DNA of 64,000 nucleotides. It comes from Planctomycetota bacterium. Its GTDB lineage: Bacteria > Planctomycetota > UBA8108 > SXIK01. The first letter of the stretch is position 1. Each line of letters begins with the position of its first letter. Shown here in pieces: positions 43,638 to 60,490 of the stretch. The notes under the pieces were generated by a model, which was not told the origin of the DNA, did no database searches, and worked only from the letters and a program-made list of their open reading frames with translations. The position numbers and the translations under genes were made by a program. Where the stretch lies: NCBI GenBank assembly GCA_965223845.1, contig CBDCXR010000004.1:6880001-6944000 (forward strand), read 5' to 3'.

Positions 43638-43647
43638 GGCGGACAGT

Positions 43648-46600
43648 ATGACAGGTTCGACTTCGGGTTGGAAGCGGAGCGCGATCGCGGGTGCAGTGCT
43701 CGTCGTGCTCGCGCTTGTCGCGTGGCGAGCGATCGAACGCGGTGAAGATGTCGATCGAAACTCCGCGCAAACTCCAGACGATGCCGCTGCGATCGATGCG
43801 GGCGAACGTTCGACGGGGAGCGGTACGTCGTCCGACGGGGAGACGCCCGGAGAAGCATCCGCGAGCGGGCCGGCGAACGATCGAGTCGACGGGATCTCTC
43901 GGCTCGTCAGCGGCCGCGTCCTCGGGGAGGGCGCGCCGATTGCGGCCGCCGAGGTGTTGCTGATCGACTTCGAGTTCTCCGCGGAGCTCCTTCGTTTGTT
44001 CGACTCGATCGAGGAGGATCCGCGGCACGGCTCCATTCCAAACATCGAAGCGCTCATTCCTCGCCTTCGATCGATCGTCGCTCGCGCGCGTGAGACCGCA
44101 CCTCGCGCGAAGGCCGACGCCGACGGACGATTCGCGTTCTCCGCCGTCGAGCCGGGCGCGTACCGACTTCTCGCGCACCGCGCCGGCTGGCAGTTTCGCC
44201 TCGGTGACGGACTGCTCGTTCGGCGCGGAACCCCGGTCGAGCGCGATGTCGAGCTCGTTCGTGGGGCCACGATAGCGGGACGCGTCATCGCGGCCGGAAA
44301 CACACCGGTCGCGGGTCGCGTCGTTCGAGCCGAGATTTCCGCGGGTTCCTCGATGTACGGCTTCCTCGTCGAACAGTTCCGCTCGCTGTTCGACGGCGCG
44401 GCCTTTCGGGGTGATCTCGAGGCGACGACCGACGCCGAGGGTCGATTCGTCTTCGATACGCTCGCTCCGGGGCGCTACGACTTGCTGACCCGCGACCGCG
44501 GCGGAGTCATCGTGCGCGCGGGCGGCGTCGCGACGGGATCGAACGACGTTCTCCTCGCGGCCCGCGCTCCGGGCTCGGTCGAAGGTACGCTGCTCGATGA
44601 ACTCGATGCGCCGCTCGTCGGGATCGTCGTCGAACTCGCGCCGAGTCAAGGCACCGAAGGCCTCGGACCGTTCGGCGCCGACTTCGGCACACTGTTCGAG
44701 CGGGCCCGGGTCGCTCTCGAAGGAAGCTCCGTCCGCGTGAAGACGAATCGCGGCGGCGAGTTTCGCCTGGGTCCGCTTGCGCCGGGTTCGTATCGAATGA
44801 ACATCGAGTCGCCCGAGATCCGCACCGTGGACCGCCGCGTCGACGTCCCGAGTGGAGAGCCGGTGCGACTCGGAGTCCTTCGCGCCTCGCGGGGCGGTAC
44901 GATCCGCGGACGCGTTTCGTCCCCCGAAGGTGCGCCGATCGCCGGGGCCGCGGTGGTGAGTGTTCCGGAGAATTCCGCGTCCGAGTGGGCGGTGTTCTCC
45001 GAAGGCGAAGTCCGTCGAGCGACGACCGACGCGAACGGCGAGTTCATCCTCGCGGGGCTCGCCGGCGGTACTCAGCGGTTGCTCGTTCGCGCGCGAGGTC
45101 GGTATCCCTTTCGAATCGATGCCGACCCGGGCGCGACGCTGGACGACATCCGACTCGAGCCCGGGATCACGGTCTCGGGGCGCGTTCGTTCGGCCGCCAC
45201 GGACGGGCCGATCGCCGGGGCGCGCGTGCGCGGCGGAAACTCGAGCGTCGAGACCGACGGGGAGGGGCGGTTTCGTCTCGACGGCTTCGTCTCATGGTTC
45301 GCCTCCGACGTGGAGCTCGCCTCGAGTCCGGTCGAGGTGGTCGCTGCGGGAGCGAACGGAATCGATGACTCGGACCGCTGGTTCGTCAAGGTGTCGGCGA
45401 GAGGGTTCGAATCGACGATGGTGCACTTCGAAGCCCGCGCGTCGGGCGAGCTGGACATCGTTCTCTCCCCGTCGAGGTTCGTTCGCGGGCGGCTGCTCGC
45501 GCCGAGCGGTGAGCCGGTCTCGGGCGTTCCCGTACGGCTGGCTCGATCGCTCGATGAAGCAGAGGCGCTGTTCGACCTCGCGCTTCTCACCGAGCGCGTG
45601 ACTTTGAGCGGCGATGAAGGTCGTTTCCGAATCTCGACGGAAGGACTCGTCTCCTCGGCCTACCGCGTCCTCGCGGACCACCGAGAGTTCGCCCGCGCGG
45701 AGGAGCGGATCTACGTGCCGCTCGAGAACGACGAGGCAGAGCTCGAGCTCCGCTTTCGTCCCGGATCCATCGTCCGGGGTGTCGTTCGAGTCGGAGCGCA
45801 TCCCTACGCGGGCGCGAAAGTTGTTCTCGCGCGTATCAACAAGGAGGCGCGCGACGATCCGGCGGAGATCGTGACGCGGATGATGGGGTTCGCTCGCCAG
45901 GGACGCGTCGTGGTTTCGGGCGCCGAAGGGAAGTTCGAGATCCCGCGCGTCGGAGAGGGCGACTACGTGATCCGTGCGGATGCGTTCGACATCGGCGAGT
46001 CGCGCGAGCTGGAGGTGCGGGTGCATCCCGGTGAGGACAGCGAGGTCGAGCTCGTACTCACCCCCGGCGGCGAAATCGGCGGCGAAGTGGTCGATGACTC
46101 GGGCGCTCCGATCGAGGGGGCGACGATAAAGCTCTTTCGCGAGGAGAGCGTCGACCCGGAGGACGAACTCGACGTGTCGCGCGAGGAAGCGCTCGCTCAG
46201 CGCCTCACGTTCGGAGTTCCGGCGAAGACCACGACGACCGACCGAGCGGGAGTGTTTCTCTTCGAAGGTGTCCCCGCGGGGAGCTTCTCGCTCGTGGCCG
46301 GAAAGCCGAGCTACTCACGCGCGGTCGTCAACGGAACCGAGGCCGGCGATGAAGACGTCGAAATCATGCTCGCCGCGCTCGGTGGGATCGCGGGGCAAGT
46401 GCTCGCGCGGGATTCGGGTGACGCTTTGGGCGAGTTTCGCGTGCTCTACACCCGAACCGATCCGTCCCCTGAAGATCTCGCCGATTTGGTGGCGACGGAC
46501 AACTCGCTCGTCGGTGCGGTCGACGGCGGTTCCCTCGATGGGAGATTCGTCGTGCGCGGACTCTCGGCCGGCGACTACGAGATCGAAGTCCACGCACCTG

Positions 46601-47277
46601 GGTTCGTCTCGCAACAAAGGACGGTCTTCGTCGAGCCCGGACGCATCCACGAGGCTGATTTCGAGCTCGATCGCGCGGCGCGCGTCACCGGAACCGTGCT
46701 CGACAAGGTGACCGGTGCTCCCGTCTCGGGCGCGAGCGTCCATTACGCCGAGCAGGGAGACGGGCCGGTCTGGTCGTTTCCGCGGGCGGACGCCACCACG
46801 ACCGGCCCGGACGGTCGCTTCTCGCTGTGGGCGGACCCGAAATCGTTGCGGATCTTCGTCCACAGCTCGGCGTTTCTTCCGCTCGAAGTGACGGTCGAGC
46901 TGAGCGTGGCGACACCGCTCGAGCTTCGTCTCGAGCTCGATCCAGGGATCTCCGCCGCGGGGCTCGTGCGCGATGCGAACGGTCGTCCGTATGCGCACCG
47001 CCACCTCCTGATCATCGGTGAAGAGACGAAACGGAGTTCCTCGACGCTGAAGGCCGTGATCACCGACGAGAACGGAAAGTTCAGTGTCGGTGGACTCGTC
47101 CCGGGTTCCTACGTCCTCCGCGACCCACGCATGGGCGTCGAGCCGGGTGAAGTCCCCGAGTTCGAGCCGCCAACGGACCAGGAAGGGCTCGAATCGTTTT
47201 GGGCGCGGCGCGACATTCGGCTCGAGCTTCGCGAAAGTCGGAGTGACTGGGACTTGACGTTTCCTAGCGGGAGTTGA
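43648..47277 (+). CDS. Membrane-anchored protein of tandem carboxypeptidase-regulatory-like repeats
   Basis: N-terminal TM SAIAGAVLVVLALVAW; about ten GRV..G.PI.GA..TD..G.F repeats; ATG at 43648 (alternative 43636 overlaps the metG start). Confidence 0.8.
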   Translation: MTGSTSGWKRSAIAGAVLVVLALVAWRAIERGEDVDRNSAQTPDDAAAIDAGERSTGSGTSSDGETPGEASASGPANDRVDGISRLVSGRVLGEGAPIAAAEVLLIDFEFSAELLRLFDSIEEDPRHGSIPNIEALIPRLRSIVARARETAPRAKADADGRFAFSAVEPGAYRLLAHRAGWQFRLGDGLLVRRGTPVERDVELVRGATIAGRVIAAGNTPVAGRVVRAEISAGSSMYGFLVEQFRSLFDGAAFRGDLEATTDAEGRFVFDTLAPGRYDLLTRDRGGVIVRAGGVATGSNDVLLAARAPGSVEGTLLDELDAPLVGIVVELAPSQGTEGLGPFGADFGTLFERARVALEGSSVRVKTNRGGEFRLGPLAPGSYRMNIESPEIRTVDRRVDVPSGEPVRLGVLRASRGGTIRGRVSSPEGAPIAGAAVVSVPENSASEWAVFSEGEVRRATTDANGEFILAGLAGGTQRLLVRARGRYPFRIDADPGATLDDIRLEPGITVSGRVRSAATDGPIAGARVRGGNSSVETDGEGRFRLDGFVSWFASDVELASSPVEVVAAGANGIDDSDRWFVKVSARGFESTMVHFEARASGELDIVLSPSRFVRGRLLAPSGEPVSGVPVRLARSLDEAEALFDLALLTERVTLSGDEGRFRISTEGLVSSAYRVLADHREFARAEERIYVPLENDEAELELRFRPGSIVRGVVRVGAHPYAGAKVVLARINKEARDDPAEIVTRMMGFARQGRVVVSGAEGKFEIPRVGEGDYVIRADAFDIGESRELEVRVHPGEDSEVELVLTPGGEIGGEVVDDSGAPIEGATIKLFREESVDPEDELDVSREEALAQRLTFGVPAKTTTTDRAGVFLFEGVPAGSFSLVAGKPSYSRAVVNGTEAGDEDVEIMLAALGGIAGQVLARDSGDALGEFRVLYTRTDPSPEDLADLVATDNSLVGAVDGGSLDGRFVVRGLSAGDYEIEVHAPGFVSQQRTVFVEPGRIHEADFELDRAARVTGTVLDKVTGAPVSGASVHYAEQGDGPVWSFPRADATTTGPDGRFSLWADPKSLRIFVHSSAFLPLEVTVELSVATPLELRLELDPGISAAGLVRDANGRPYAHRHLLIIGEETKRSSSTLKAVITDENGKFSVGGLVPGSYVLRDPRMGVEPGEVPEFEPPTDQEGLESFWARRDIRLELRESRSDWDLTFPSGS

Positions 47278-47363
47278 GGGAACGTCGGGAGGTCGTACGA
47301 CGTCGCGTCTGCGGCGTCTTCCACTGTCGTCGGAGAGTTGTCATGAGCTCAGCCGAAGACTCT

Positions 47364-50300
47364 ATGTCGCGAGCGGTGTCATGCGCCGCCGTGGCAGCGT
47401 TCGCACTCGCAGCCTGTTCGATGACGGAGTCTGTTGTCGCTCCGGAGCCGCTCGTCGAGCCGGTGAACGAATCGAGCCGACCCGGAGGAACGATCGTCCA
47501 CGGTCGAATCGAAGGGGAAGGCGCTGGGCTCGCGGGGATCGAGGTCCTGCTTGTTCCTACGAGCTACCAGCGCGACCTTCTGCGTATTCTCGATTCGGCC
47601 CAGGGGCTCCGGTCGTCGACTCACGAGCCGGAGATCGAGGACACACTACGTGCTATACAAGATCTCGTCGACCGAACGCGCGCGTCGGCACCTCGAACCA
47701 CGACCGGGGCAGACGGGAGATTCCGATTCGGTGGAGTCGCGCCGGGAACCTACCGAGCCCTCGCCTTCGGCGCCGGCTGGCGACTTGATTTCGGCGCACC
47801 GGTCTTCGCGGATCGCGCGAAGTCGTTCGAGCTCCGAATTGCGCTAATCCGCGCCGAGCGCATCTCCGGTCAAGTGATCTCAGTCGACGGATCACCCGCC
47901 GCGAACGTCTCAGTACGCGCGCGAGTATTCTACGTTGGTTCTTTCGGGTTTAGCCTCGAAGCCAGTCTTCGCGAACTTTTCGACGGCTCGGCGCTCCGGG
48001 GTCCCCTCGAAACACGGACGGACGCGACGGGACGTTTCGAGTTCGATGCACTCAGTCCCGGACGCTGGAGCGTCCGTGCATCTTCGGCCGATCAATCCGT
48101 GGCGCGGGTCCACGAGATCGACGCGGGCTCGGAGGGCCTCGTGCTCGAGCTTCAGGCTCCAGGCGAGATCTTCGGTACGCTCGAAGACGATCTCGGATCC
48201 CCGATCGCCGACGCTTCCCTAGCGCTCGAGCCGGAGAGGTATCAAATCACGCTCGGTCGATTTCTGGGCATCTACGGCGGCGGTGATTGGAGGCGGCGGG
48301 CGAGAGAGGGACTTACGCTCACCGGTGCGCGTCTCGCGACGGATGAACAGGGGCGATTTCGGTTCGGGTCCGTGGCGCCGGGTGACTACCGGCTCACCAT
48401 CCGCACTCCGTTCGCGCGCACGATCGAGGAGCGATTCCAAGTCGGGCCGGGGGAAGTCGTCGACTTCGGTGTGCTTCGAGCGGCGCGCGGTGACTCGATC
48501 AGGGGGCGCGTCGAGTCGCCGGACGGTACGCCGATCGCTAACGCTCGCTTGACCGCGTCGCTCGAGGGCTCGATGGCCGAATACTTTAAGACGTCGCGTT
48601 TGGATCGACGGCGATCTACGAACACCCGAGACGACGGCACGTTTGCCGTTCACGGAATAGTGCCGGGAGAACACTCCGTGCGAGTTTTCGCCGCGAGTTG
48701 GGAGCCACGGAATGTCCGGGTGAAGTCGGGGGAGAGCGCAACCAACATCACCTTGGAACCGGGGAAGACAATCGCGGGAACGGTTCTCGACGCGGAGACC
48801 GGCGTACCGATCCCGGGGGCGACGATCGCGGGCGGTGGTGTGTCAGCGACCGCCGATGAATCGGGGCGCTTCCGGCTGGTTGGCTTCGTCGCGGAGCACA
48901 TCGACAACGTGTTGTTCGCGGCGCAACTCGCGTCGCCGACGGACGACGGAGCGTTTGTGTGGGACGACGATACCACCACCGCGTTTCTTGAGGCGAGAGC
49001 AGAGGGATTCGGGCCGAGTATCGTCGAAGTGCCGGACTTTGACCGCGTCCGCGACGTTGCGATTCGACTCAAGGAAGTCTCGGTTGTCCGCGGTCGAGTG
49101 TTCTCTCCAAGTGGAGAACCACTGCGTGCCGCGACCGTCCAGCTCGCGCTGTCCAGTGATCCGATCGAAGAGGGTTTTGGGGCCGTCACCGTGGGCGTGC
49201 GGCTCGGGCGGACCGACGAACAGGGCGTATTCGAGTTCACGGGTGCAGGCTTGTTCGATCGGGAATACGTGGCGTACGCCGATCACCCTCAGTTTGGAGA
49301 TGTGAGGAGCGAAAGATCCTCGCTCCGGCGCGGCGAATTGCCGGAGCTCGAGCTTCGCCTGCCGGGCCTTGAAGACCTTAGGGGAATCGTGCGCACCGGC
49401 GACCGAACAGTCGCGGGAGCGAAGATCGTTCTTCGCCGACCGCACGGCCGCGAAAGAACGGTACGTTCGGATTCCGAGGGGAGGTTTGCGTTCGAGGACG
49501 TACCGATCGGCGCCCACCGAATCCAGGCTTTGGCTACCGGCCTCGGCGAGTCACGGGCACGCGGAATCCTGATCGAAGAGGGACGGGAGAACGCCGTTGA
49601 GCTCGAGCTCGACGAGGGGAGGGATCTTCACGTCGAGGTCGTCGACTCTTCCGGAAAACCAGTGGAAGGCGCCTCGGTGAGACTCTATCGAGAAGAGTCC
49701 GCGCGGAAGAGTCGTTGGGACCGAGTACGTTCCCGAATCGCGAACGGGACTCCGTGGCGGGCACGAACGACCGGCCGAGACGGTGCATGTCGCTTTGCTC
49801 AGTTGCCTCCCGTTCTCTTCACCGTTCTCGTTTCTCGCGCCGGCTACTCGGCTTGGTGCGTCTCCGGGCAGCGGGCGTCCGAAACACTCGTTCGGATTCG
49901 CATCGATAAGCTCGCGAGAATCGCGGGGCGATTCGTCTCGAAGGCGACCGGGCAGCCGATTCGTTCGTTCTTCGTCTTGGGGGCTCACCGCGAGCTGTTC
50001 GACAACAAGGGGGCGCACGACCTTGCACGGTTCTCTGTTGGTATCGACGGCGTGGCCGCGGATGGCCGATTCGCGGCCGCCGAGCTCATGCCCGGCCCCT
50101 ACGATTTCTGGTTCGTCCCGCGCGGTTTCGTCGGGCGACGCATGCGCGTTGATCTCGAGCCGGGGGAGGAACGGGTGTTCGATCTCGAGCTAGATCCGGC
50201 GGCAGTCGTACGCGGAGTCATCGTCGATGCGGACACCGGACGACCAGTGCCCGAGGTGGAAGTCGAACTTCGGGTGGAGGGTGACGAGGAGGGCGAACCT

Positions 50301-50774
50301 GAGCCTGAGCCCGATCCGGACGGAGATTTGCTTCTGCGTCGGTGGCGATCCGACAAGTTCGGTCGCTTCGATCTCTCCGCTCGCTCGCTACCGGTCGAGT
50401 TGGTCGTTCGCAGCGAGGAGCACGTTCCGTATCGTCGAACGATCGAGTCCGGAGATCGAGAGACCACCGAGGATCTCCGGGTCGAGCTTCGGGCGGGACT
50501 GTCGCTGTCCGGTCGACTCCTAGATGCCGGCGGCGTGCCGCTAGCGCGAGAGCACTGTTATCTGACGCCGCGAAACGGCACGGCGCCCGACGATTCTCGT
50601 CGGGTCGATACCGAAGGTGACGGGAGCTTTCGATTCGCTGGGCTTCTCCCGGGAGAATACCGTTTCTCTACGCGGCTGTCGTTTCCGGAGAACCCTCACA
50701 CGGCCCGTAGCACCTTCGAATTCTCACTATCTGAAAGTCGAGACGACGTCGAGATCCGCCTGCCGAAGAGATGA
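47364..50774 (+). CDS. Lipoprotein of tandem carboxypeptidase-regulatory-like repeats (paralog of the upstream gene)
   Basis: MSRAVSCAAVAAFALAAC lipobox; collinear with the upstream protein (LFDGSALRGPLETRTDATGRFEFDAL vs LFDGAAFRGDLEATTDAEGRFVFDTL). Confidence 0.8.
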   Translation: MSRAVSCAAVAAFALAACSMTESVVAPEPLVEPVNESSRPGGTIVHGRIEGEGAGLAGIEVLLVPTSYQRDLLRILDSAQGLRSSTHEPEIEDTLRAIQDLVDRTRASAPRTTTGADGRFRFGGVAPGTYRALAFGAGWRLDFGAPVFADRAKSFELRIALIRAERISGQVISVDGSPAANVSVRARVFYVGSFGFSLEASLRELFDGSALRGPLETRTDATGRFEFDALSPGRWSVRASSADQSVARVHEIDAGSEGLVLELQAPGEIFGTLEDDLGSPIADASLALEPERYQITLGRFLGIYGGGDWRRRAREGLTLTGARLATDEQGRFRFGSVAPGDYRLTIRTPFARTIEERFQVGPGEVVDFGVLRAARGDSIRGRVESPDGTPIANARLTASLEGSMAEYFKTSRLDRRRSTNTRDDGTFAVHGIVPGEHSVRVFAASWEPRNVRVKSGESATNITLEPGKTIAGTVLDAETGVPIPGATIAGGGVSATADESGRFRLVGFVAEHIDNVLFAAQLASPTDDGAFVWDDDTTTAFLEARAEGFGPSIVEVPDFDRVRDVAIRLKEVSVVRGRVFSPSGEPLRAATVQLALSSDPIEEGFGAVTVGVRLGRTDEQGVFEFTGAGLFDREYVAYADHPQFGDVRSERSSLRRGELPELELRLPGLEDLRGIVRTGDRTVAGAKIVLRRPHGRERTVRSDSEGRFAFEDVPIGAHRIQALATGLGESRARGILIEEGRENAVELELDEGRDLHVEVVDSSGKPVEGASVRLYREESARKSRWDRVRSRIANGTPWRARTTGRDGACRFAQLPPVLFTVLVSRAGYSAWCVSGQRASETLVRIRIDKLARIAGRFVSKATGQPIRSFFVLGAHRELFDNKGAHDLARFSVGIDGVAADGRFAAAELMPGPYDFWFVPRGFVGRRMRVDLEPGEERVFDLELDPAAVVRGVIVDADTGRPVPEVEVELRVEGDEEGEPEPEPDPDGDLLLRRWRSDKFGRFDLSARSLPVELVVRSEEHVPYRRTIESGDRETTEDLRVELRAGLSLSGRLLDAGGVPLAREHCYLTPRNGTAPDDSRRVDTEGDGSFRFAGLLPGEYRFSTRLSFPENPHTARSTFEFSLSESRDDVEIRLPKR

Positions 50775-50854
50775 CGCACCATCCTTCGGCCAGACGCGAC
50801 GAGACCCACACTTGTGCCGAAAGTGTGTGGCGCGTACACTCCTCCCCAATTGGA

Positions 50855-51146
50855 GCTCAGGTGTCCCCCCGAGCCAGCAACTCGGTGGGACGGCAAGAGG
50901 GAAGCCGGTGTACGAGGCTTCGATACGCGGCCGCCGCTGTGAGCGGTGATCGCGAGCCGAAGCGTCCGAGTCCGGCGCGGGCCCCGCCACTGTGACTGGG
51001 GACTGCTTCTCCTCCCGGCGCGACAACGCGCGCCGGTACGCGAACGCCACTGAGGTTTGCGATCGCCCGCATGCGCGGACGGTTGGTTCCTTGGGAAGGC
51101 GCGAGGAGAGGCGGGACGATCCAGGAGCCAGGAGACCTGCCTGAGC
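50855..51146 (+). ncRNA. Cobalamin (AdoCbl/B12) riboswitch
   Basis: Closing stem GCTCAGG/CCTGAGC; AAGAGGGAAGCCGGTG..AGTCCGGCGCGGGCCCCGCCACTGTGA; GCCACTG; TGGGAAGG; B12 box GAGCCAGGAGACCTGCC at 51125-51141. Confidence 0.92.
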
Positions 51147-51337
51147 GGTTTCTTCCGAGAAGCGTCTTCGGACGCAGAACGGAGCCTTCGGGGACGGAGG
51201 CGAAACGAGACGCGGAAGCACACGCGAGAGCGCGTGGCGTCGCCGCGACTCTCTCGCTCTCGTCGTCGATGCGAGGCTGGTAGCGGACGATCCATCGCCG
51301 CCCCGACTTCGATCCGTCCTGCGTTCGAGGCGCGGTC

Positions 51338-51359
51338 CCCTTTGCGGTGAGAAAGGGAG
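51338..51359 (+). promoter_or_regulatory. Putative SD-sequestering hairpin (riboswitch expression platform)
   Basis: CCCTTT(51338-43)-GCGGTGAG-AAAGGG(51352-57) overlaps the AAGGGAG RBS of the ATG at 51366. Confidence 0.5.
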
Positions 51360-51365
51360 TTCTCT

Positions 51366-52673
51366 ATGTCTCGTTCGTTTCCCGCCAGCCCCGAGTCCGC
51401 CTCTCGGACCCGTTCCCGTTCTCGTTCCCGACAAACCTCTTCTCTTCCTTCTCTGCTTGCTCTCCCTCCATCGCCCCAGCTCCAACGCATTCTCACCCTC
51501 GCCGCCTTCTTTTTCTGCGGAACCTCCACCTCCCGCGCCACCGAGCCCGTCGTCGTCTCACCCGACTGCTTCGTTGCCCGCGACGTCACGACCTTTGCCG
51601 CGAGCGCCGGGGGCGCTCAAGGGATGGCAATCTCACCGGACGGCGAGCTCATCGCTCACGAGAGCGGATCCGTTCGCGAGATTCGGACGGATCGGGAGCT
51701 CTTTCGATTTAGCGAAGACACCTTCGGCTCGTTCGTCGTCGTCCATCCGGACCACGAGCGCATCTTCGTCGGGGAGAGCTCGCGCGGAACGATCCGCTCC
51801 GTTCCGATCGCCGGCGGCGACGCGACACTCGTCGACTCGATCGTCTTCAATTACGACCTCGCCTTCGACGAGGATGGAAACGGTTACGTCTCCGCGCCGG
51901 ACCCCGAGTTCGTCTTCAATCAGGTCTATCTCGTCGACGGCGATCCTTCGACACCGAGCCCCGCGATCGTGATCGGCATCCCGGGCTTCTCGGGGCCACT
52001 AGCGATGCACGATGGATTTCTTTACTACGGAACGGCGCGAGGCGACGGCGGTGCGGAAGCGCTCGCGCGGTTTTCCCCCGCGCAGCTCGCCGCGGCGCGG
52101 GGCGGAACTCCGATCGCTTACGTCGATGGCCAAGAGATCTTCGCCGAGGCTTCCGGGTTCAATTCCTTCGCGTTCGTCGGCGGCACCCTCTACTACTCCG
52201 ACCTCGGTTTCAACGCGACACCGTCGATCGGACGGATCTGGTCGCTCGACGTCACGAAGAGCGATGCGCCGAGCGCGTTCGTCGACTTTCCGATCGCGGG
52301 CGGAGTGCTCTCCCCGACGTACCTCGCGTTTCGCCCGGGAACGCACGACTTCGCCGGTGGCGTCGGGCCGGACGGCGGCAGTCTCTTCGTCGCGTACTCA
52401 GACTTTGCGTCCGTCGCCGCGGTCGCGGCGATTCGCCCGGGCGAAATGTTCGTCCGCGGTGAGACGAACGGCGACGGGTCCGTCGACATCGCCGATGCTC
52501 TCACCGTGCTCAACTTCCTCTTCGCCGACGGCGCGGAGCCGAGTCCGCGCATCGCTGCGGACATCAACGGAGACGATCGACTCGATATCTCCGACGCGAT
52601 CTATCTGCTCGAGTTTCTCTTCGGCGACGGGCCCGACGTCCCGGAGCCGCACTCGGCACCGGGCTGCGGATAG
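51366..52673 (+). CDS. B12-riboswitch-associated exported protein: beta-propeller-like repeats plus dockerin-like C-terminal tail
   Basis: RBS AAGGGAG; blade-like segments GMAISPDGEL, YDLAFDEDGNGYVS, GPLAMHDGFLYYG, SFAFVGGTLYYSD; tail FVRGETNGDGSVDIADAL..ADINGDDRLDISDAI. Confidence 0.72.
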   Translation: MSRSFPASPESASRTRSRSRSRQTSSLPSLLALPPSPQLQRILTLAAFFFCGTSTSRATEPVVVSPDCFVARDVTTFAASAGGAQGMAISPDGELIAHESGSVREIRTDRELFRFSEDTFGSFVVVHPDHERIFVGESSRGTIRSVPIAGGDATLVDSIVFNYDLAFDEDGNGYVSAPDPEFVFNQVYLVDGDPSTPSPAIVIGIPGFSGPLAMHDGFLYYGTARGDGGAEALARFSPAQLAAARGGTPIAYVDGQEIFAEASGFNSFAFVGGTLYYSDLGFNATPSIGRIWSLDVTKSDAPSAFVDFPIAGGVLSPTYLAFRPGTHDFAGGVGPDGGSLFVAYSDFASVAAVAAIRPGEMFVRGETNGDGSVDIADALTVLNFLFADGAEPSPRIAADINGDDRLDISDAIYLLEFLFGDGPDVPEPHSAPGCG

Positions 52674-52792
52674 TTTCGCTAGGGAAATCTTTTCTCCGCG
52701 AGCGTCTCAGGTCTCGTCCGCGCGCGTTCCGCCGAGCGCGGACGAGTCCTTTTTCCTTGCTCGCTTTTCCTCGCTCCAAGAGACTCGGCGGC

Positions 52793-55360
52793 ATGACGCC
52801 TGGTGACGATCGAGATCGAGTCAGCCGAAGGGGCGACGGAGCGGACGAACCGGCCGGATCCGGCGCCGAGACCGAGATCACGGACGGTCGGGACGCGATC
52901 GATGCGGACGCTTCGGAAGCTCGCGCCGAGTTCGTGCCGTCGACATCCCCCTCGGACTGCACGGTGATCTCACGCCTCCGCGACGTTCTCGGTTATGAGC
53001 CCGCGATCGATCTTCGCACTCTTTCCTCCGAGCACGACGTCTCGGTCGGCGCCGAGGGGACGCAAGGGAAGTACGTGATCGAGCGCGTGATCGGCGAGGG
53101 CGGCATGGGAAAGGTCTACCTCGCCGTCGATCGCGATCTTCGTCGTCCCGTCGCTCTCAAGGTCATCAAGGATCACCTCGCCCGCGATTCCGATCACCTC
53201 GCTCGGTTCGTCGAAGAAGCGCAGGTCACGGGGCAGCTCGAGCATCCGGGGATTCCCCCGGTGCACGAGATCGCGATGAATCAGAACGGCGAGGTGTTCT
53301 TCACGCTGAAGCTGCTTCGGGGACGCACGCTCAAGGAGGTGATTCACGACGTTCACGTCGGCCGGCGGGAAACGCGCGAACGGTTCACGCGAAAGCGCCT
53401 TCTTCAGGTGGTCGTTGCGGTCGCGAACGCGGTTCACTTCGCGCACGAGAAGGGCGTCGTCCACCGCGACATCAAGCCGGCGAACATCATGATCGGCGAC
53501 TTCGGCGAAGTTCAGCTCATGGACTGGGGACTCGCGAAGGTGATCGGCGAACGCCGGGAGGAAGTGGTCGTCGAGCCCGTCGAGACGGTTCGCTCCGAGC
53601 AGCAGATGTCGACCCTCCACGGGCAGGTGCGGGGGACGCTCCAATACATGGCTCCCGAGCAGGCACAGGGGCGCGTCGAGTTCATCGACCGGCGGAGCGA
53701 CGTCTACTCGCTCGGCGCGACGCTCTACGAAGTGCTCACCATGCTTCCGCCGAAGACGGGTGGTTCGCTCGAGGAGATTCTCGAGGAGTCGCGCCTCGGT
53801 CTCGTGATTCCGCCGACGGTTCGCGCGCCGAAGCAGCGGATACCGTCCGAGCTCGAAGAGATCTGCGTGCGCGCGCTCGAATACCATCCGGACGATCGCT
53901 ACGAGACCGCGCTAGAGTTCGCCGAGTCGATCCAGGTTTACCTCGACGGGACGCTCGAAGAGGAGCGCCGCCGCGCCGAGTCGGAGCGGCTCCTCAAAGA
54001 GGCGCTCCAGGTTCTCCGCGAGCACGAGATCGAGAAGGGGCGACAGCAAAAGGCGGCGGCGAGGCTCGAAGATCTCGAGCGCACCTCGGGGCACTACCCG
54101 TCGCCCGAGACGAAGCGCGAGCTTCTTCGCGCGCGTGGCGAACTCGACGAGGCGGAGCTCTCCGTCGCTCGGCTCGGGGCGCGCGCTCAGTCGCTTCTCT
54201 CGGCGTCGCTCACCGCGCACGCAGAGAACGCGCGCGCCCGACGCACGCTCGGCGACCTCTACCTCGAGCGATTCCTGCGCGCCGAACGCGAGCGAAACCA
54301 AACGGACATGATCTTCTATCAGGGCCTCATCGAGCAGGTGAACGACGGGAGCTTCGATCGCGTCCTCAAGGGCGACGGCGCGCTCGTGCTCGCGTCGGAG
54401 CCGCGGAACGCGCGGCTCGTCCTCAGGCCCGTCGAGGAGCGCGACGGTCGATTGCTTCCCGGAGACGCCATCGCGGAGGCGACCGATCGCCTCGAGCTCC
54501 CCGATCTCGCGATGGGAAGCTACTGCGTCGAGCTAACCGCCGATAATCGCTGTCCCACACTCTATCCGGTCTTCGTCGAGCGAAATCAAACGACGCGCGA
54601 CCGCATCGAGCTCCACACGCGGGATCGTGTGCCGGAGCGCTTCGTCTACATCCCGCGCGGAAGCTTCATCATGTACGGCGATCCGAACGTCGTCTCGACG
54701 TTTCAGAGTCGAGCGCGCGTTCAGGTCGAAGGCTTCGCGATCGGACGCTATCCCGTAACTTGCGGAGAGTACCTCGAGTTCTTGAGCGATCTTCACCGGC
54801 GCGATCCGGACGAAGCCGAGCGGCGGGCCCCCCGCGAGTCCGAGGCGGCGGGGATCTTCTGGTCCGCCGGCGCCGATGGCTACTCCCTCCCGGAGGCGGA
54901 CCGTTACCCCTGGTCGACCGAGCTTCCGATCTTCGGCGTATCGTTCGCCGATGCCCTCGCTTACTGCGCGTACATCGGCGCGCGCGACGGTCGAACTTAC
55001 GATCTACCGACCGAGGCCGAGTGGGAAAAGGCCGCGAAGGGCGTCGACGGCCGGTACTACAGTTGGGGAAACGTGTTCGACAACGAGTTCGCTAACAACC
55101 TTTACGCACGCGAGCACGAGCACGGGGTGCAGCCCGTCGACAGCTACCCCGCAGACTGTTCGCCCTACGGTGTGCGTGGTATGGTGGGGAACGTCGCCGA
55201 TTGGTGTTACTTCGAGGGGGCGGAGCCGACCGACATGGTCGCGGTGCGCGGCGGCAACTGGGCGCTCACGGGCGACCCGTGTCGACTCTCCGTTCGCCGG
55301 AGCACGACGGATCGGTACGTGTCCGATCGCATCGGTTTCCGCGTGAAGCTCGTTTTGTAG
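52793..55360 (+). CDS. Ser/Thr protein kinase fused to FGE-sulfatase (SUMF1/EgtB/PvdO) domain
   Basis: IGEGGMGKVY, VALK, HRDIKPAN, DWGLAK, GTLQYMAPEQ, DVYSLG; C-terminal LPTEAEWEKAA, SPYG..MVGNVADW, RGGNW, IGFR. Confidence 0.93.
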   Translation: MTPGDDRDRVSRRGDGADEPAGSGAETEITDGRDAIDADASEARAEFVPSTSPSDCTVISRLRDVLGYEPAIDLRTLSSEHDVSVGAEGTQGKYVIERVIGEGGMGKVYLAVDRDLRRPVALKVIKDHLARDSDHLARFVEEAQVTGQLEHPGIPPVHEIAMNQNGEVFFTLKLLRGRTLKEVIHDVHVGRRETRERFTRKRLLQVVVAVANAVHFAHEKGVVHRDIKPANIMIGDFGEVQLMDWGLAKVIGERREEVVVEPVETVRSEQQMSTLHGQVRGTLQYMAPEQAQGRVEFIDRRSDVYSLGATLYEVLTMLPPKTGGSLEEILEESRLGLVIPPTVRAPKQRIPSELEEICVRALEYHPDDRYETALEFAESIQVYLDGTLEEERRRAESERLLKEALQVLREHEIEKGRQQKAAARLEDLERTSGHYPSPETKRELLRARGELDEAELSVARLGARAQSLLSASLTAHAENARARRTLGDLYLERFLRAERERNQTDMIFYQGLIEQVNDGSFDRVLKGDGALVLASEPRNARLVLRPVEERDGRLLPGDAIAEATDRLELPDLAMGSYCVELTADNRCPTLYPVFVERNQTTRDRIELHTRDRVPERFVYIPRGSFIMYGDPNVVSTFQSRARVQVEGFAIGRYPVTCGEYLEFLSDLHRRDPDEAERRAPRESEAAGIFWSAGADGYSLPEADRYPWSTELPIFGVSFADALAYCAYIGARDGRTYDLPTEAEWEKAAKGVDGRYYSWGNVFDNEFANNLYAREHEHGVQPVDSYPADCSPYGVRGMVGNVADWCYFEGAEPTDMVAVRGGNWALTGDPCRLSVRRSTTDRYVSDRIGFRVKLVL

Positions 55361-55406: not shown

Positions 55407-56009
55407 ATGGACAAGACCGGGCGGATCACCGTCGAGATCATCGAGCGCATCCGGACGGAGGGAGAGTCCGGAATCGACGAGTTCGTCCGGCACTACGGTC
55501 CGCGGCTGCTCGTCTTCGTGCGCTACAAGCTCGGCGCAAAACTCGCGAAGAAGGTCGATCCGGAGGACGTCCTCCAAGACTTCTTCAGCACGCTCGTCGC
55601 AAACCCCGAGAGCTTCATCGAGAAGGTCGACGCGCGAGGGGTTCACCGCGCGGTGTTCCGCATGATCGAGAACCGCATCAAGGATCTCTACGAGCACTTC
55701 TACCGAACGGCGAAGCGGGATGCGGGTCGCGAGATCCGCGAGGGGACCGGGAGCGCACGGTTCTCGTTCTCCCAGGTCGGGGGATCGGCGTCGTTCAGCC
55801 GTCGCATCTCGAACCTCGACGAGTACCGGAGCCTCAGTCGACTCGTCGACCAGCTCGACGAGGAATCGCGGCAGCTCTTCGTGCTCAAGTTCGTCGAGGA
55901 GCTGACGAACCAGGAAATCGCGGACGAGCTCGGAGTCTCGCTGAGTACGGTGAAGCGGTCGAATGCCGACCTCGTACGGGCGATCCAGCGTGTTCGGCGG
56001 GGGGCGTAG
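55407..56009 (+). CDS. ECF sigma factor (planctomycete kinase-associated type)
   Basis: LAKKVDPEDVLQ, sigma4 LDEESRQLFVLKFVEELTNQEIADELGVSLSTVKR; 46 bp downstream of the kinase; no adjacent anti-sigma. Confidence 0.85.
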   Translation: MDKTGRITVEIIERIRTEGESGIDEFVRHYGPRLLVFVRYKLGAKLAKKVDPEDVLQDFFSTLVANPESFIEKVDARGVHRAVFRMIENRIKDLYEHFYRTAKRDAGREIREGTGSARFSFSQVGGSASFSRRISNLDEYRSLSRLVDQLDEESRQLFVLKFVEELTNQEIADELGVSLSTVKRSNADLVRAIQRVRRGA

Positions 56010-56257: not shown

Positions 56258-59200
56258 TCACTCGAGCCCACACACCTCGTCATCCGCCGTAGGATCGACC
56301 CCGAAGCTCACGGGACTCGAAGGCGGCAGCGGCGGAGGTCCGTCCTCGAAGATGAATTCGAGGATGTACACGGAGTCCGCGATGTCGATCTCTCCCGAGT
56401 CGTCCGCGTCCGCCGCGTCGCGGCACGGCGGCTCGGTGCCGTCTCCGAAGAGGTAGAGGAGCCCGGCGATCGCGTCGGAGATGTCGAAGCTCCGATCATT
56501 GTTCACGTCCCCACGGTCGAAGCCGTAGATGTAGCCGATCGGCGCGATATCGAACCCGAGTGAGTTCTCGACTCGGACGTCGATCTCCCGCTGAGTATCG
56601 ATCTGCGGCGCGAGGACCGTGACCGTACCCGCGCCCGCGTCGAAGTCTTGAATCTCCACCTCGACATCGTCGAATCCGACCCACACGTCGGAGACCGCCG
56701 CGCCGAGGTTATCGACCGTGATCACGACGGACTGTTCTTCGTCCCACGGCCCTGAGCTCGGGTCGATCGAGGTGATGCGCGGCGCGGCGGGAAGGCCGGA
56801 GTCGACGACCACCAGTCGCTTCGCGCTGCGATCGATCACGGCGACGGAACCGCCGGGAATGTACGCGAAGTCGGCGATGTCGTCCGAGCCCAACCCGCCG
56901 AGCGGTGTCGTCGCGCCGCCGTCTCCGAAGTCCGTGTCGAGCTTTCTGATCTCAGTGATCGTCGTCGTTCCCGGAGCCCCGACGCCGACGAGCAGCGTGT
57001 TGTCGACCGGGAATCGGGCGACTCCGATCGAGTGGTCGATCAGCATGCCGAGGTTGGCGCTCAGTGACTCGTCGACGTCCGGCGCGCCGTCCTCGATGCG
57101 AAATCCGATGAGGCACTCGACACCCGGTCCGCCGAGCGCGAAGAAAAGATCGTCGCGGATCGCGAGTCCACTGTAGCCCGCGGGATCGGGCGGCTCCGGG
57201 AGATCGATGAATGGCGCGGGGTCAGCGGCGCCGAGCCGGGCAAAGATCCGCCCATCCGCGAGGAGAAGGAAGAGGCGATTCGAATCGGCCGGGTCGACCG
57301 CCAGGCCGCGAACTTGCGTCGCGGCGAACGGATCATCCGGAAGAAGCGCGGCGTCGGCGAGATCGAGGTTCCCGTCGAAGAAGAGAAGCTCGCCGCCGCT
57401 CAGCGCGACGATGATCTCGCCCGTAGCCTCGCGAAACGCGACCGCGTCGGGCGCGATATCGAGCGGCGTCTCGTCTTCGATCGCACCTTCGCCGATCGAT
57501 ACCTGGCTCTCCGATGGAAGTGAAAACGGTTCCTCGATCTCGTCTTCATCGAACTCGATCCCGCCGGCGCCGCCGTCCGTCACGCCTTGGCCGATGACGC
57601 GATAGGTGTGAGTGCCGCCGGGAACGCCGGTGTCGCGGAATCCGCTCGGATTCTCGTCGAAGGGAAAGGGGCTCCCTCGAAGCTGCCGACCGTTCCGCAG
57701 AATGTAGAGCTGCCGGAACGCGATCGGGCTCGTCCAGCGAAGCTCGATCGTATCCCCGGCTGCGCGCGCGTCGAACGCGAGAACCGGGGGAAGGCGCTCC
57801 GCCGGTGGCGGATCGAGCGGATCGAACGGCGAGAAGACGGCGTTCGTTTCGGCGCCGTTCAAGATCCCGTCGCCGTCGCTGTCGAAGCGGCGCGCACTGA
57901 CGCTCGCCGCGGGGAACCCCGAGCCGTCGCCGTGGAGCTGATCGGCCAGAACGCGCGGTACGGCGAGGCGCACATCGAGTCTCTCCGCGGCCGGATCGAT
58001 GCGCGAAATCGCCGTCCCGCCCTCGAGGAGAGCGTGGACGCGTCCGCGTCCGTCGAACATGAGGTGCCCGGTGCGGTCGAGCGATCCGCCGTGAGCACGG
58101 CGGAGAAAGCGCGCGCCGGCAGGATCGAATCCGACGATGTCATCGCCGCTGATGACGAAGCTGTTCCCCACTCCGTCGATCGCGAGCCCATCGCCGCGAA
58201 TCGCGCGTCGCCAGACGATCCCGCCGGCGCGCGACAAGCGGACGAGCTCAGCCGAGCTGCGCGCGAAGAGATCGCCGCGCGGACCGGCCGCGATCTGGTC
58301 GACTTGCTCCGCGAATTCGCCGCCGATCCGAAACGTGAAGACGTGCTGCACCGAGAGGGTGCGCGTCAGCTTGCGCAGAGCGAACGTCGTCGTGTGATCG
58401 GTACCGAACCAGAGGCTCCCGAACGGATCGAGCGCGAGCGTCGCGCGCGCCGGCGTCGTTCGCAGCTGCAGTCGGCCGTCGACACCGGTCGCCGTGACTC
58501 GCGTGACCGCGCCGTCGTGAGCGACCCACGCAACACCGCGCGAGGCGGCGAGGTGGTGGAGCGTATTTAGGGGAAACGTCGCGAGCGGAGCTCGGTCGAC
58601 GAGGGAAAGGTCGCTCGCGCGGAGGCGCTGGACGGTGCCTTGAGAAAGCGCTACCCAGAGCACGTTCGACTCCTCGACGGCGAATGCCGCTTCCGTGCCG
58701 GCGGGAATCGCGAACGAGTTGTCGGTGACGTCGCCGTCGGGTGAGAGCTGGCGGAGGGCGCTCGCGTCGGCGAAGACGATTCCGTCCATCGGAGGCTCGA
58801 TCGCGGCTGCACCCGGAACGAGATCGACCTGGAAGATCTGCCTGACTCCTCCGGTCGGACCGGCGAGGTTCTCCGCCGCCGAAGCGAGCGCGGCCGACGT
58901 TCCATCGCGATTCAGTGACGCGTCCGTCGTCGCGGCGTCGCCGATTCCTCCCGGGATCCGCGCGAGGGGAGTCGTCGTCCCGAGAACACGGTCCCGGATG
59001 TAGACGTCGAAGGCGCCGTTCGTGTCGATGGCGTCGACCGCGATGTCGGTTGCGAACGCGACGAACCGCCCGTCCGCGGAGATGTCCCGGAGCGAAATCG
59101 TCCGCGCGGCGCGAGTCGCAGAAATCTCGCCGCCGTCCGAATCGACGCTCACCCGCTCGGTCGTTCCGGCGACGAGATCACGAACGAAGACGTCACCGAT

Positions 59201-60163
59201 TCCGTTCGTGTCCGCCGCGACCAGGTTCGACGCGTCGCTGTCGAACCCGACCCAGCGCCCGTCGTCGCTGATGCGTACATTCGTGCTCGCGCCGTTCCCT
59301 TCCGCGCCTCGGAGCCCCACGCTCACGCGCTCGACGACGCCGGTACCGCGGCGGTAGAGATAGATGTCCGAGGCGCCGTTGGTGTCGCCGGCGACGAAAC
59401 TGCTCACCGTCGACTGGAACGCGACGAGCTTCCCGTCTCCGCTGACGCGCGGCGCGGAGCTGTCGCCGTTCGGCTCCCGGCCCGCGCCGATCGGCGGAAC
59501 CTCGAACGCGTTTCCCCGGTCGAGCGTACGGGTGAGATCGCGGACGAAGATGCGCTGGCGCTTCGCGATCCCCTGGTCGGCGTCGAGATCGCTTGCGGCC
59601 GAGTCGAAGACGACGGTGGTTCCGTCCGCCGAGATCGCCGGCCGACTCGAGGCCGCGTCCGCCGCCGTCGCGTCGCCATCCGACTGACTGAGGAGGAACA
59701 ACACCGGTCCTGCTGCGCCGGTCGCGTCGCGGAGGAAGATGTCGCTCGAGCCGTTCGCATCGGTTCGCGGCGGCGCGAGATTGGTCGCCTGACTTTCGAA
59801 GACTAGGCGCGTGCCGGCGTCGTCGATCGACGCGTGAACGCTCGCGCGATTCCCCTTGGTCGCGCCCCGCGCGCTCGCGATTACGAGCGTCCCGCCTTCC
59901 GCGAGGAGAATGTCCGAGATCGCGTCGGCATCCGTGCGGAGGAGATTGGACGCGATCGTTTCGAAGGCGATCGTGTCACCGGCGGCGTCGACCGTCGGCC
60001 CGATCGACGCGCCATTGCCGAAGTTGCCGCCCGGGACACCGCTCACGAGCGAGTAGTTCTGGCCGATCGCGTCCGTTTGACCGAGCAGGACCGCGAGCGC
60101 GAGCGCCGAGGCGGCGATCGAGCGGCGAGTTCGAGTGGTTGCGGCGGAGCGGTGGAGCGGCAT
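56258..60163 (-). CDS. Large exported protein: TolB/PD40-like propeller, further propeller-like and FN3-like domains, IPT/TIG domain, dockerin-like tail
   Basis: Signal peptide; repeats of ISADG..VAF.S.ASNL..DTNG..DVFVRD; APRITSIDPSSGP (IPT); tail FDRGDVNNDRSFDISDAI..C.DAADADDSGEIDIADS..GVDPTADDEVC. Confidence 0.82.
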   Translation of the reverse strand: MPLHRSAATTRTRRSIAASALALAVLLGQTDAIGQNYSLVSGVPGGNFGNGASIGPTVDAAGDTIAFETIASNLLRTDADAISDILLAEGGTLVIASARGATKGNRASVHASIDDAGTRLVFESQATNLAPPRTDANGSSDIFLRDATGAAGPVLFLLSQSDGDATAADAASSRPAISADGTTVVFDSAASDLDADQGIAKRQRIFVRDLTRTLDRGNAFEVPPIGAGREPNGDSSAPRVSGDGKLVAFQSTVSSFVAGDTNGASDIYLYRRGTGVVERVSVGLRGAEGNGASTNVRISDDGRWVGFDSDASNLVAADTNGIGDVFVRDLVAGTTERVSVDSDGGEISATRAARTISLRDISADGRFVAFATDIAVDAIDTNGAFDVYIRDRVLGTTTPLARIPGGIGDAATTDASLNRDGTSAALASAAENLAGPTGGVRQIFQVDLVPGAAAIEPPMDGIVFADASALRQLSPDGDVTDNSFAIPAGTEAAFAVEESNVLWVALSQGTVQRLRASDLSLVDRAPLATFPLNTLHHLAASRGVAWVAHDGAVTRVTATGVDGRLQLRTTPARATLALDPFGSLWFGTDHTTTFALRKLTRTLSVQHVFTFRIGGEFAEQVDQIAAGPRGDLFARSSAELVRLSRAGGIVWRRAIRGDGLAIDGVGNSFVISGDDIVGFDPAGARFLRRAHGGSLDRTGHLMFDGRGRVHALLEGGTAISRIDPAAERLDVRLAVPRVLADQLHGDGSGFPAASVSARRFDSDGDGILNGAETNAVFSPFDPLDPPPAERLPPVLAFDARAAGDTIELRWTSPIAFRQLYILRNGRQLRGSPFPFDENPSGFRDTGVPGGTHTYRVIGQGVTDGGAGGIEFDEDEIEEPFSLPSESQVSIGEGAIEDETPLDIAPDAVAFREATGEIIVALSGGELLFFDGNLDLADAALLPDDPFAATQVRGLAVDPADSNRLFLLLADGRIFARLGAADPAPFIDLPEPPDPAGYSGLAIRDDLFFALGGPGVECLIGFRIEDGAPDVDESLSANLGMLIDHSIGVARFPVDNTLLVGVGAPGTTTITEIRKLDTDFGDGGATTPLGGLGSDDIADFAYIPGGSVAVIDRSAKRLVVVDSGLPAAPRITSIDPSSGPWDEEQSVVITVDNLGAAVSDVWVGFDDVEVEIQDFDAGAGTVTVLAPQIDTQREIDVRVENSLGFDIAPIGYIYGFDRGDVNNDRSFDISDAIAGLLYLFGDGTEPPCRDAADADDSGEIDIADSVYILEFIFEDGPPPLPPSSPVSFGVDPTADDEVCGLE

Positions 60164-60490
60164 GACGGCCTTTCGACGCGGGGAAGTCTCCATCGTACCG
60201 GCGATTGTACGTCGGGCTGCGCCCTTGCGGCAGGGCCGGGGACGGAAGGGGCACCGGTGCGGTCTTTGTTCGCGTGAGAGACGACGCGTGCACCCCGCGA
60301 GGTCTCTCTACCAGTCGGGGGAGATTCCCGCCGGGTCGGCTCACCGGGTCGTGGTGGTTCTTCTCGATTTCCCGCCCCCGCCTCGACGGCGCGGTTGATC
60401 CGAGCGCCGTGTGTCGTCAGAGTGAGTCGTTCGCGGCTTGGCGGGCGCATTCGCTCGCGCGCAAACGGACCGGTGAATGAGGAGACCGAA

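Follow-up and report, generated by a model that had tools for sequence, protein, structure and literature searches.

The extracellular proteins that capture vitamin B12 and have been characterised so far, BtuG, BtuH and BtuJ, are those of gut Bacteroidetes. The BtuG proteins of Bacteroides thetaiotaomicron (BtuG1/2/3) are N-terminally lipidated surface lipoproteins, always encoded beside btuB, with a seven-bladed propeller that sits as a lid on BtuB and takes corrinoids into its central cavity at the cell surface (PMC6143338, PMC10404256). In BtuG2 the propeller face that binds corrinoids is negatively charged, whereas the corrinoids are positively charged (PMC10404256). No BtuG homologues were found outside Bacteroidetes (Wexler 2018; PMC6143338), and lipoprotein-capped TonB-dependent transporters were regarded as exclusive to Bacteroidetes (Abellon-Ruiz 2023; PMC10404256). 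BtuH and BtuJ (DUF4465, PF14717) are accessory surface B12-binding lipoproteins from riboswitch-controlled loci of Bacteroidetes (10.1101/2025.07.01.662609). The stretch analysed here, 64,000 nt from a Planctomycetota bacterium (hereafter the window; its source genome, G000, is 7.93 Mb and 91.7% complete), carries a complete cobalamin riboswitch followed on the same strand by a gene for an exported 435-residue beta-propeller protein with a dockerin-like tail. As the pairing of riboswitch and propeller gene recurs in almost every relative examined, the propeller is a strong candidate for a new kind of extracellular B12 capture. On the comparative analysis given below, we consider it somewhat probable that the protein is a B12-repressed extracellular corrinoid-capture protein, BtuG-like in role and unrelated to BtuG by descent, with corrinoid binding itself a prediction.

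The locus is made up of the following parts (positions here and below are those of the window unless prefixed by a locus name).

50842-51158, + strand: cobalamin riboswitch aptamer, RF00174 (cmscan, 64.5 bits against a gathering score of 31.5, E 1.2e-13)
51159-51365, + strand: leader or expression platform, between the aptamer and the ATG
51366-52673, + strand: propeller open reading frame (ORF), 435 residues, the next ORF on the strand after the riboswitch
51366-51539, + strand: start codon and N-terminal export signal, residues 1-58
51540-52451, + strand: six-bladed beta-propeller, residues 59-362; its family has no Pfam model
52452-52670, + strand: type-I dockerin-like tail, residues 363-435, with two Ca-binding-type repeats, NGDGSVDIAD and NGDDRLDISD
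52671-52673, + strand: stop codon of the propeller gene

An earlier, sequence-only reading of this DNA had placed a B12 riboswitch upstream of the 435-residue ORF, and the cmscan of the whole window agrees: the match is complete, covering positions 1-189 of the 189 of the model, and is the sole Rfam match anywhere in the window. The B12 box GCCACTG (51046-51052) aligns to the consensus gCCACUG, and two peripheral stems of the aptamer carry long insertions. From the end of the aptamer it is 207 nt to the ATG of the propeller gene at 51366, on the same strand, a layout repeated in related loci. The leader has a hairpin at 51338-51357 (CCCTTT...AAAGGG), and its 3' arm overlaps the Shine-Dalgarno sequence AAGGGAG (51353-51359), which stands 6 nt ahead of the ATG. 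No U-tract terminator is present in the leader, 51159-51365, and a promoter scan gave no promoter. Sequestration of the Shine-Dalgarno sequence at high B12 may be the switching mechanism; we infer it with reserve, since the scan yields no more hairpins of this kind than chance would and the z of the leader fold is -2.0.

The case for B12-dependent control turned on whether homologues are riboswitch-linked as well, a test that the sequence-only reading had itself proposed, and linkage was found in each set of loci. Close homologues from metagenomes have RF00174 upstream on the same strand at four of six loci, the other two (L002, L006) beginning inside the gene. Within the class, 23 of 40 related genomes hold a homologue (by family, f1 3/3, f2 13/14, f3 3/3, f5 4/4, f4 0/2 and f6 0/14), and the riboswitch lies directly upstream on the strand of the gene at 22 of 25 loci. 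The loci that lack it (L020, L036, L041) are each cut by a contig end, and for G012 and G002 the lost 5' end with its riboswitch was found on another contig (L042, L051). A profile of the divergent clade matches 51 of 401 genomes of the phylum at E <= 1e-10, including all 12 of family f10 and all eight of f28. At 27 of the 28 best loci outside the class the riboswitch is directly upstream; at the remaining one (G403) it is upstream on the strand of the gene as well, but at a distance of 3.1 kb. Second copies that are linked to a riboswitch number four, two of them adjacent to it (G384:C335, G215:C32) and two about 1.3 kb away (G231:C1, G290:C200); in G231:C1 an uncharacterised secreted gene fills the gap of about 1.3 kb between riboswitch and propeller. 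Even among the weakest matches riboswitch and gene are adjacent on one strand in 10 of 14 genomes, and further relatives from named records show the pairing in four of five cases. Whereas the gene downstream varies, the pairing itself is kept in many families of the phylum.

The window riboswitch was the only RF00174 match found in G000 by cmsearch (150 of 607 first-look candidates scored), and an nhmmer search with a profile of 25 riboswitches of the lineage, at E <= 10, confirmed it as the sole one. Because the pairing is conserved and this is the only cobalamin riboswitch found in the genome, B12-dependent control of the propeller family is well supported and, as a reading of sequence comparisons, highly probable. 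In the class, exactly one cobalamin riboswitch was found in 37 of 41 genomes, two in one and none in three. In G403 the sole riboswitch precedes genes for a FecCD permease (E 2.1e-66), an ABC ATPase, a Peripla_BP_2 protein and the propeller, all on one strand, so that the propeller is the last gene of a riboswitch-controlled btuCDF-like operon. We examined nine additional riboswitches: five have Peripla_BP_2/FecCD/ABC importers downstream, two precede an uncharacterised secreted protein of a second family with Diphthami_syn_2 (one of them also with DUF6580), and two precede proteins without a Pfam match, one of which (L114) aligns to the same second family. No biosynthesis gene or B12-independent isozyme stands behind any of the nine. 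In families f4 and f6 we read 10 of 15 riboswitch loci (L043-L050, L052, L053), and in all ten the sole cobalamin riboswitch precedes a two-gene operon for secreted proteins of about 420-500 residues, both with the same dockerin-type tail. These operon proteins align to the propeller family with an hhalign probability of 99.3%, most of which comes from the dockerin; their propeller parts are only weakly similar to the family and may share its descent.

The second secreted family (A7) is likewise uncatalogued and its members, about 330-365 residues long, lie directly behind cobalamin riboswitches in Planctomycetota (L087:6832-7929, L108:403-1440, L109:427-1461, L114:4742-5773). They share the motifs LG.GGSLTLGF, NGPGADF, FARFP and GSADIDAV. 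A member lies between riboswitch and propeller in G231, and another occurs with DUF6580 and Diphthami_syn_2 in G191. The AlphaFold2 (AF2) model of this family was poor (pLDDT, the predicted local distance difference test, 41.4), and we found no PDB sequence match, no Pfam family and no member in G000.

The sequence-only reading had called the protein propeller-like, and an AF2 model built with six sequences gives that description a definite form. The model has a mean pLDDT of 75.6 and a pTM (predicted template modelling score) of 0.72; within the propeller most 10-residue blocks reach 85-96. Its strands, residues 69-358, group into six blades of four strands each, and the dockerin helices come after them. 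Compared by VIA-align with 48,161 chains, the model gave Z scores of 20-25.5 to six-bladed folds (root-mean-square deviation about 3 A over 240-280 residues), and of 22-25.5 to SGL, NHL and soluble PQQ-dehydrogenase structures, the best matches being PQQ pyranose/glucose dehydrogenases, SGL lactonases, NHL domains, the PknD sensor, strictosidine synthase and YWTD domains. The 50 listed Foldseek matches were generic propellers only, and the ESM Atlas gave generic NHL/SGL clusters only, with scores <= 0.90. The family has conserved motifs of its own, VFGSF, FGESS-G-I, FNYDLAFD, IPGFSGPLA and G-LYY-TA; the first four, read from the strand list of the model, appear to lie on inner strands and adjoining loops of blades 2-4. 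The propeller is strongly acidic (isoelectric point, pI, 4.25; 38 acidic against 15 basic residues), as are 12 of the 13 relatives checked (pI 4.05-4.48).

A phmmer search with the propeller part found 237 cluster representatives at E <= 1e-3, of which 58 pass 1e-10 and 15 pass 1e-30, and 63 of the 150 listed representatives were scanned against Pfam. Among these 63, Dockerin_1 is present in 16, three are ordinary WD40 proteins and hence not family members, and no Pfam propeller family reaches its cut-off, SGL being sub-threshold in two and DUF6923 in one. SGL and NHL (PF08450, PF01436) gave no above-cut-off match, only sub-threshold ones in 2-3 of 37 relatives and none in the window protein. 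The C-terminal modules vary across the family (a dockerin or, in more distant members, a domain of about 110 residues or PEP-CTERM), and some members are tandem double propellers. The dockerin clade (A2) and the clade with the C-terminal domain (A3) nevertheless form one family, with an hhalign probability of 100% (E 1.3e-51) over the whole propeller. In PDB sequence searches the A2 profile found type-I dockerins and the A3 profile NHL, Pizza and PknD blades. A pattern scan of genome contigs with the A2 alignment found no relative. The named carriers, six records and P0067, are metagenome-assembled genomes or uncultured bins that assign the family to Planctomycetota, none of them cultured, and in the full-text literature, subscription journals excepted, no publication was found that links a cobalamin riboswitch to proteins of this kind in Planctomycetota. 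Three members are noted for their architecture, P0008, P0019 and L035:5854-7878, which are fused tandem double propellers (674-725 residues) with a single dockerin tail, and two for their length, P0048 and P0053, which are short (312-316 residues) and end in a PEP-CTERM-type anchor with no dockerin. A contig of 2.9 kb (L106) carries riboswitch and propeller, the latter 67% identical to a Planctomycetota member, and is labelled as a Luminiphilus sp. bin, possibly a binning error.

How, then, does this protein compare with BtuG? Both are exported acidic beta-propellers behind a cobalamin riboswitch in a B12 auxotroph, which in the present case is an apparent one; the protein here differs in having six blades in its predicted model, a C-terminal dockerin, no lipobox and normally no adjacent TonB-dependent receptor. 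Kinship, implied by the comparison with BtuG in the sequence-only reading, found no support, as the protein departs from BtuG in four features. PF16819 (DUF5074) has no match in the window protein at E <= 0.01 and none in G000, and 0 of 37 A3-clade relatives match it even at E <= 1; the blades number six against seven; there is no lipobox; and no btuB is a neighbour. BtuG is also not among the PDB sequence matches at E <= 10 (all 36 for A2 and the best 60 of 90 for A3). No BtuG chain is among the best 50 matches of Foldseek against the PDB or of VIA-align, and since many propellers fill those places, the structural lists alone leave kinship possible. The protein is best described as a non-homologous functional analogue of BtuG and a candidate for corrinoid capture. 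BtuH and BtuJ resemble it as riboswitch-controlled extracellular B12 binders, and they show that B12 capture uses several unrelated folds; they differ in that PF14717 is unmatched in G000 and in the window protein. To our knowledge neither BtuH nor BtuJ is a propeller. The remaining comparison is with the SGL, NHL and soluble PQQ-dehydrogenase propellers (6jt5_A, 2p4o_A, 3dr2_B, the PknD sensor 1rwi_B and the Pizza6 designs), which share the six-bladed fold, whereas their Pfam cut-offs are not reached here and the conserved motifs are particular to the present family. We know of no riboswitch link for the SGL, NHL or PQQ-dehydrogenase propeller families.

The N-terminus was thought by the sequence-only reading to carry an atypical export signal, which holds for its n-region only. 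That region, 41 residues long and rich in Ser, Arg and Pro, is followed by an ordinary hydrophobic segment, ILTLAAFFFCGTS, and a cleavage-type motif, SRA/TEP. The 435-residue ORF has no further in-frame ATG, GTG or TTG ahead of the hydrophobic segment, and AF2 places a helix at residues 37-50 with low pLDDT. Signal peptides are present throughout the propeller family; those of homologues are of the ordinary 20-30 residues with cleavage motifs of the AQ/AXA type, and align to residues ~42-58 of the ORF. No conserved Cys follows the signal peptide in the window protein or its homologues, hence the signal is not of the lipoprotein type. A public gene call, P0001 (349 residues), begins at Met87, leaving out the signal peptide together with the first propeller strand (51366-51623), and this start is too late because the signal peptides of the homologues align upstream of it, to residues ~42-58.

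The dockerin-like tail recognised by the sequence-only reading is confirmed by Pfam and by solved structures. Dockerin_1 (PF00404) at residues 367-412 scores 30.7 bits against a cut-off of 22.9 and is the sole Pfam match of the protein, and the family profile matches solved type-I dockerins (2y3n_B, E 1.7e-5). The invariant tail residues are N368, D370, D374 and D377 in one repeat and N401, D403, D407 and D410 in the other. Display of the propeller through this tag, as the sequence-only reading proposed, is plausible but not specific: in G000 Dockerin_1 is matched at least 125 times (with 150 of 421 candidates scored; for example window 14417-14578), and there are six cohesin-like matches, four of them over the cut-off and none tied to the propeller protein. 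The organism seems to use the dockerin-type module as a general tag at the C-terminus. It resembles the cellulosomal type-I dockerins (PF00404; 2y3n_B, 3ul4_B) in its two repeats of Ca-binding loop and helix, and differs from them in being a mass-used C-terminal tag on proteins that have nothing to do with polysaccharide breakdown. In G000 several of the cohesin and dockerin matches share one frame, and elsewhere in the window (56258-60193, - strand) a 1311-residue exported protein with PD40 and TIG matches ends in the same dockerin-like tail.

As CbiC and CobS were not found in G000, B12 auxotrophy is indicated, and the genome has B12-binding domains (PF02310, six matches, one in a 1396-residue frame), so that G000 seems, from its gene content, to be a B12 user dependent on import of the finished cofactor. 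Of its five TonB-dependent receptors none reaches the BtuB equivalog level, and its one Peripla_BP_2/ABC/FecCD (BtuFCD-like) operon has no riboswitch. A scavenging role for the propeller fits the G403 operon with its btuCDF-like genes, the importers of BtuFCD type behind five of nine other riboswitches, the indicated auxotrophy and the strongly acidic propeller. The favoured course of events would be a one-gene B12 regulon. When (adenosyl)cobalamin is scarce, the unliganded riboswitch would leave the ribosome-binding site open and the 435-residue protein would be made and exported by the Sec pathway. Beyond the cytoplasmic membrane, with the cell surface as the likeliest place, its acidic propeller would bind corrinoids on the face that carries the conserved motifs, and the dockerin-type module would tether it there. 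Captured B12 would then pass to an outer-membrane transporter, presumably one of the five TonB-dependent receptors, and on to the single BtuFCD-like ABC importer. When B12 is replete, the riboswitch would turn the gene off, probably by occlusion of the Shine-Dalgarno sequence.

Several observations weigh against corrinoid capture or against parts of this scheme. No TonB-dependent receptor lies beside the propeller gene, here or in 16 wide loci. Two short MetE-like genes are present in G000, therefore B12 may not be strictly essential to it, and the absence of CbiC and CobS means "not found", as the genome is 91.7% complete. The hairpin at the ribosome-binding site is the single terminator-like match, below the shuffle expectation of 2.1. 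The linkage also has its gaps: two extra paralogous copies have no riboswitch (the second G415 copy, and the G269:C67 fragment with an in-frame TGA); in the four weak matches of 14 without adjacency the riboswitch is on another contig in three and was not found in one (73% complete); and in L107 the ~260 nt that remain up to the contig end contain no riboswitch. Finally, most of the nearest folds belong to enzymes (PQQ sugar dehydrogenases, SGL lactonases, strictosidine synthase), with NHL domains beside them, and the conserved motifs containing E, N and D could be a metal site.

These last points lead to an alternative that we think unlikely yet worth stating, a secreted enzyme induced by B12 starvation, of the six-bladed SGL, PQQ-dehydrogenase or lactonase type, that would free corrinoids from carriers or debris or modify their analogues. 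The top structural neighbours are enzymes, namely the PQQ pyranose dehydrogenase 6jt5_A (Z 25.5), the AA12 enzyme, gluconolactonases, Drp35 and strictosidine synthase. SGL Pfam matches, sub-threshold, occur in P0016, P0058 and L087:7998-9299, and the acidic and amide motifs GESS and FNYD appear, in the model, on inner strands and adjoining loops. Against this, every Pfam enzyme family stays below its cut-off, P0006 has another residue in place of the Glu of GESS, binding domains of the NHL and YWTD types come close to the same scores in the structure comparison, and the regulon partners found are all transport components. Those NHL and YWTD/LRP propellers, together with teneurin, are protein-binding modules, and with the dockerin, PEP-CTERM and other surface-sorting tails typical of adhesins, and a propeller gene that usually stands alone with no transporter beside it, they suit an adhesin or partner-recognition protein, induced by B12 starvation to attach the cell to B12 producers or particles without binding corrinoids. 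We consider this improbable: in G403 the propeller shares an operon with a btuCDF-like importer, the propeller is acidic throughout, which suits a cationic small ligand, and we know of no precedent for a one-gene B12 regulon devoted to adhesion. A pairing irrelevant to B12, with the aptamer a decayed relic or a regulator of, for example, the downstream kinase and the propeller serving some unrelated function, is very improbable indeed. The window aptamer does score lowest among close relatives (64.5 against up to 111 bits) and has large insertions, and the kinase ORF begins 84 nt past the propeller stop with no terminator found; the aptamer nevertheless matches the full model well above the gathering score and keeps its B12 box, the pairing persists across many families while the downstream gene changes, and the kinase is not a conserved neighbour in the other loci.

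The gene content around the propeller agrees with the sequence-only reading, which had seen no TonB receptor, BtuFCD or isozyme downstream: a Pfam scan of the neighbouring genes found no transporter, cob gene or B12-independent isozyme among the window neighbours. On the 3' side a Ser/Thr kinase-FGE-sulfatase fusion (52757-55360, +) is followed by an extracytoplasmic function (ECF) sigma factor (55407-56009, +; Sigma70_ECF, PF07638), and the 16 wide loci show no conserved co-directional neighbour. Upstream of the riboswitch, 43636-47277 and 47274-50774 (+) encode giant proteins of 1213 and 1166 residues with 9-11 CarboxypepD_reg repeats, their stop and start codons overlapping by 4 nt, and a similar giant protein lies upstream of the riboswitch in G003 (L018). 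An ORF of about 400 residues follows the propeller gene by 100-130 nt in 14 loci of related families (L005:5339-6583, L023:4444-5640, L027:7207-8424 and 11 further loci); it is absent from the window and from other clades and is taken, by its sequence motifs, for an M24 (Xaa-Pro) peptidase-like protein.

A wider reading of the comparative data, which we offer tentatively and as less than probable, is that the six-bladed propeller is the main B12-sensed uptake component of Planctomycetota, a high-affinity "cobalamin antenna" with interchangeable tails (dockerin-cohesin, PEP-CTERM or the ~110-residue domain) serving an outer-membrane route other than the BtuB-BtuG lid, and in many lineages the only gene under B12 control. 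In this environmental phylum of apparent B12 auxotrophs, the cobalamin riboswitch, in many cases the only one of a genome, stands before the gene of an uncatalogued secreted propeller. If corrinoid binding proves true, the family would be a new B12-binding fold and family, would give the abundant planctomycetal dockerin-like tag a concrete cargo and would explain by what means Planctomycetota of water and soil compete for B12, a scarce vitamin there.

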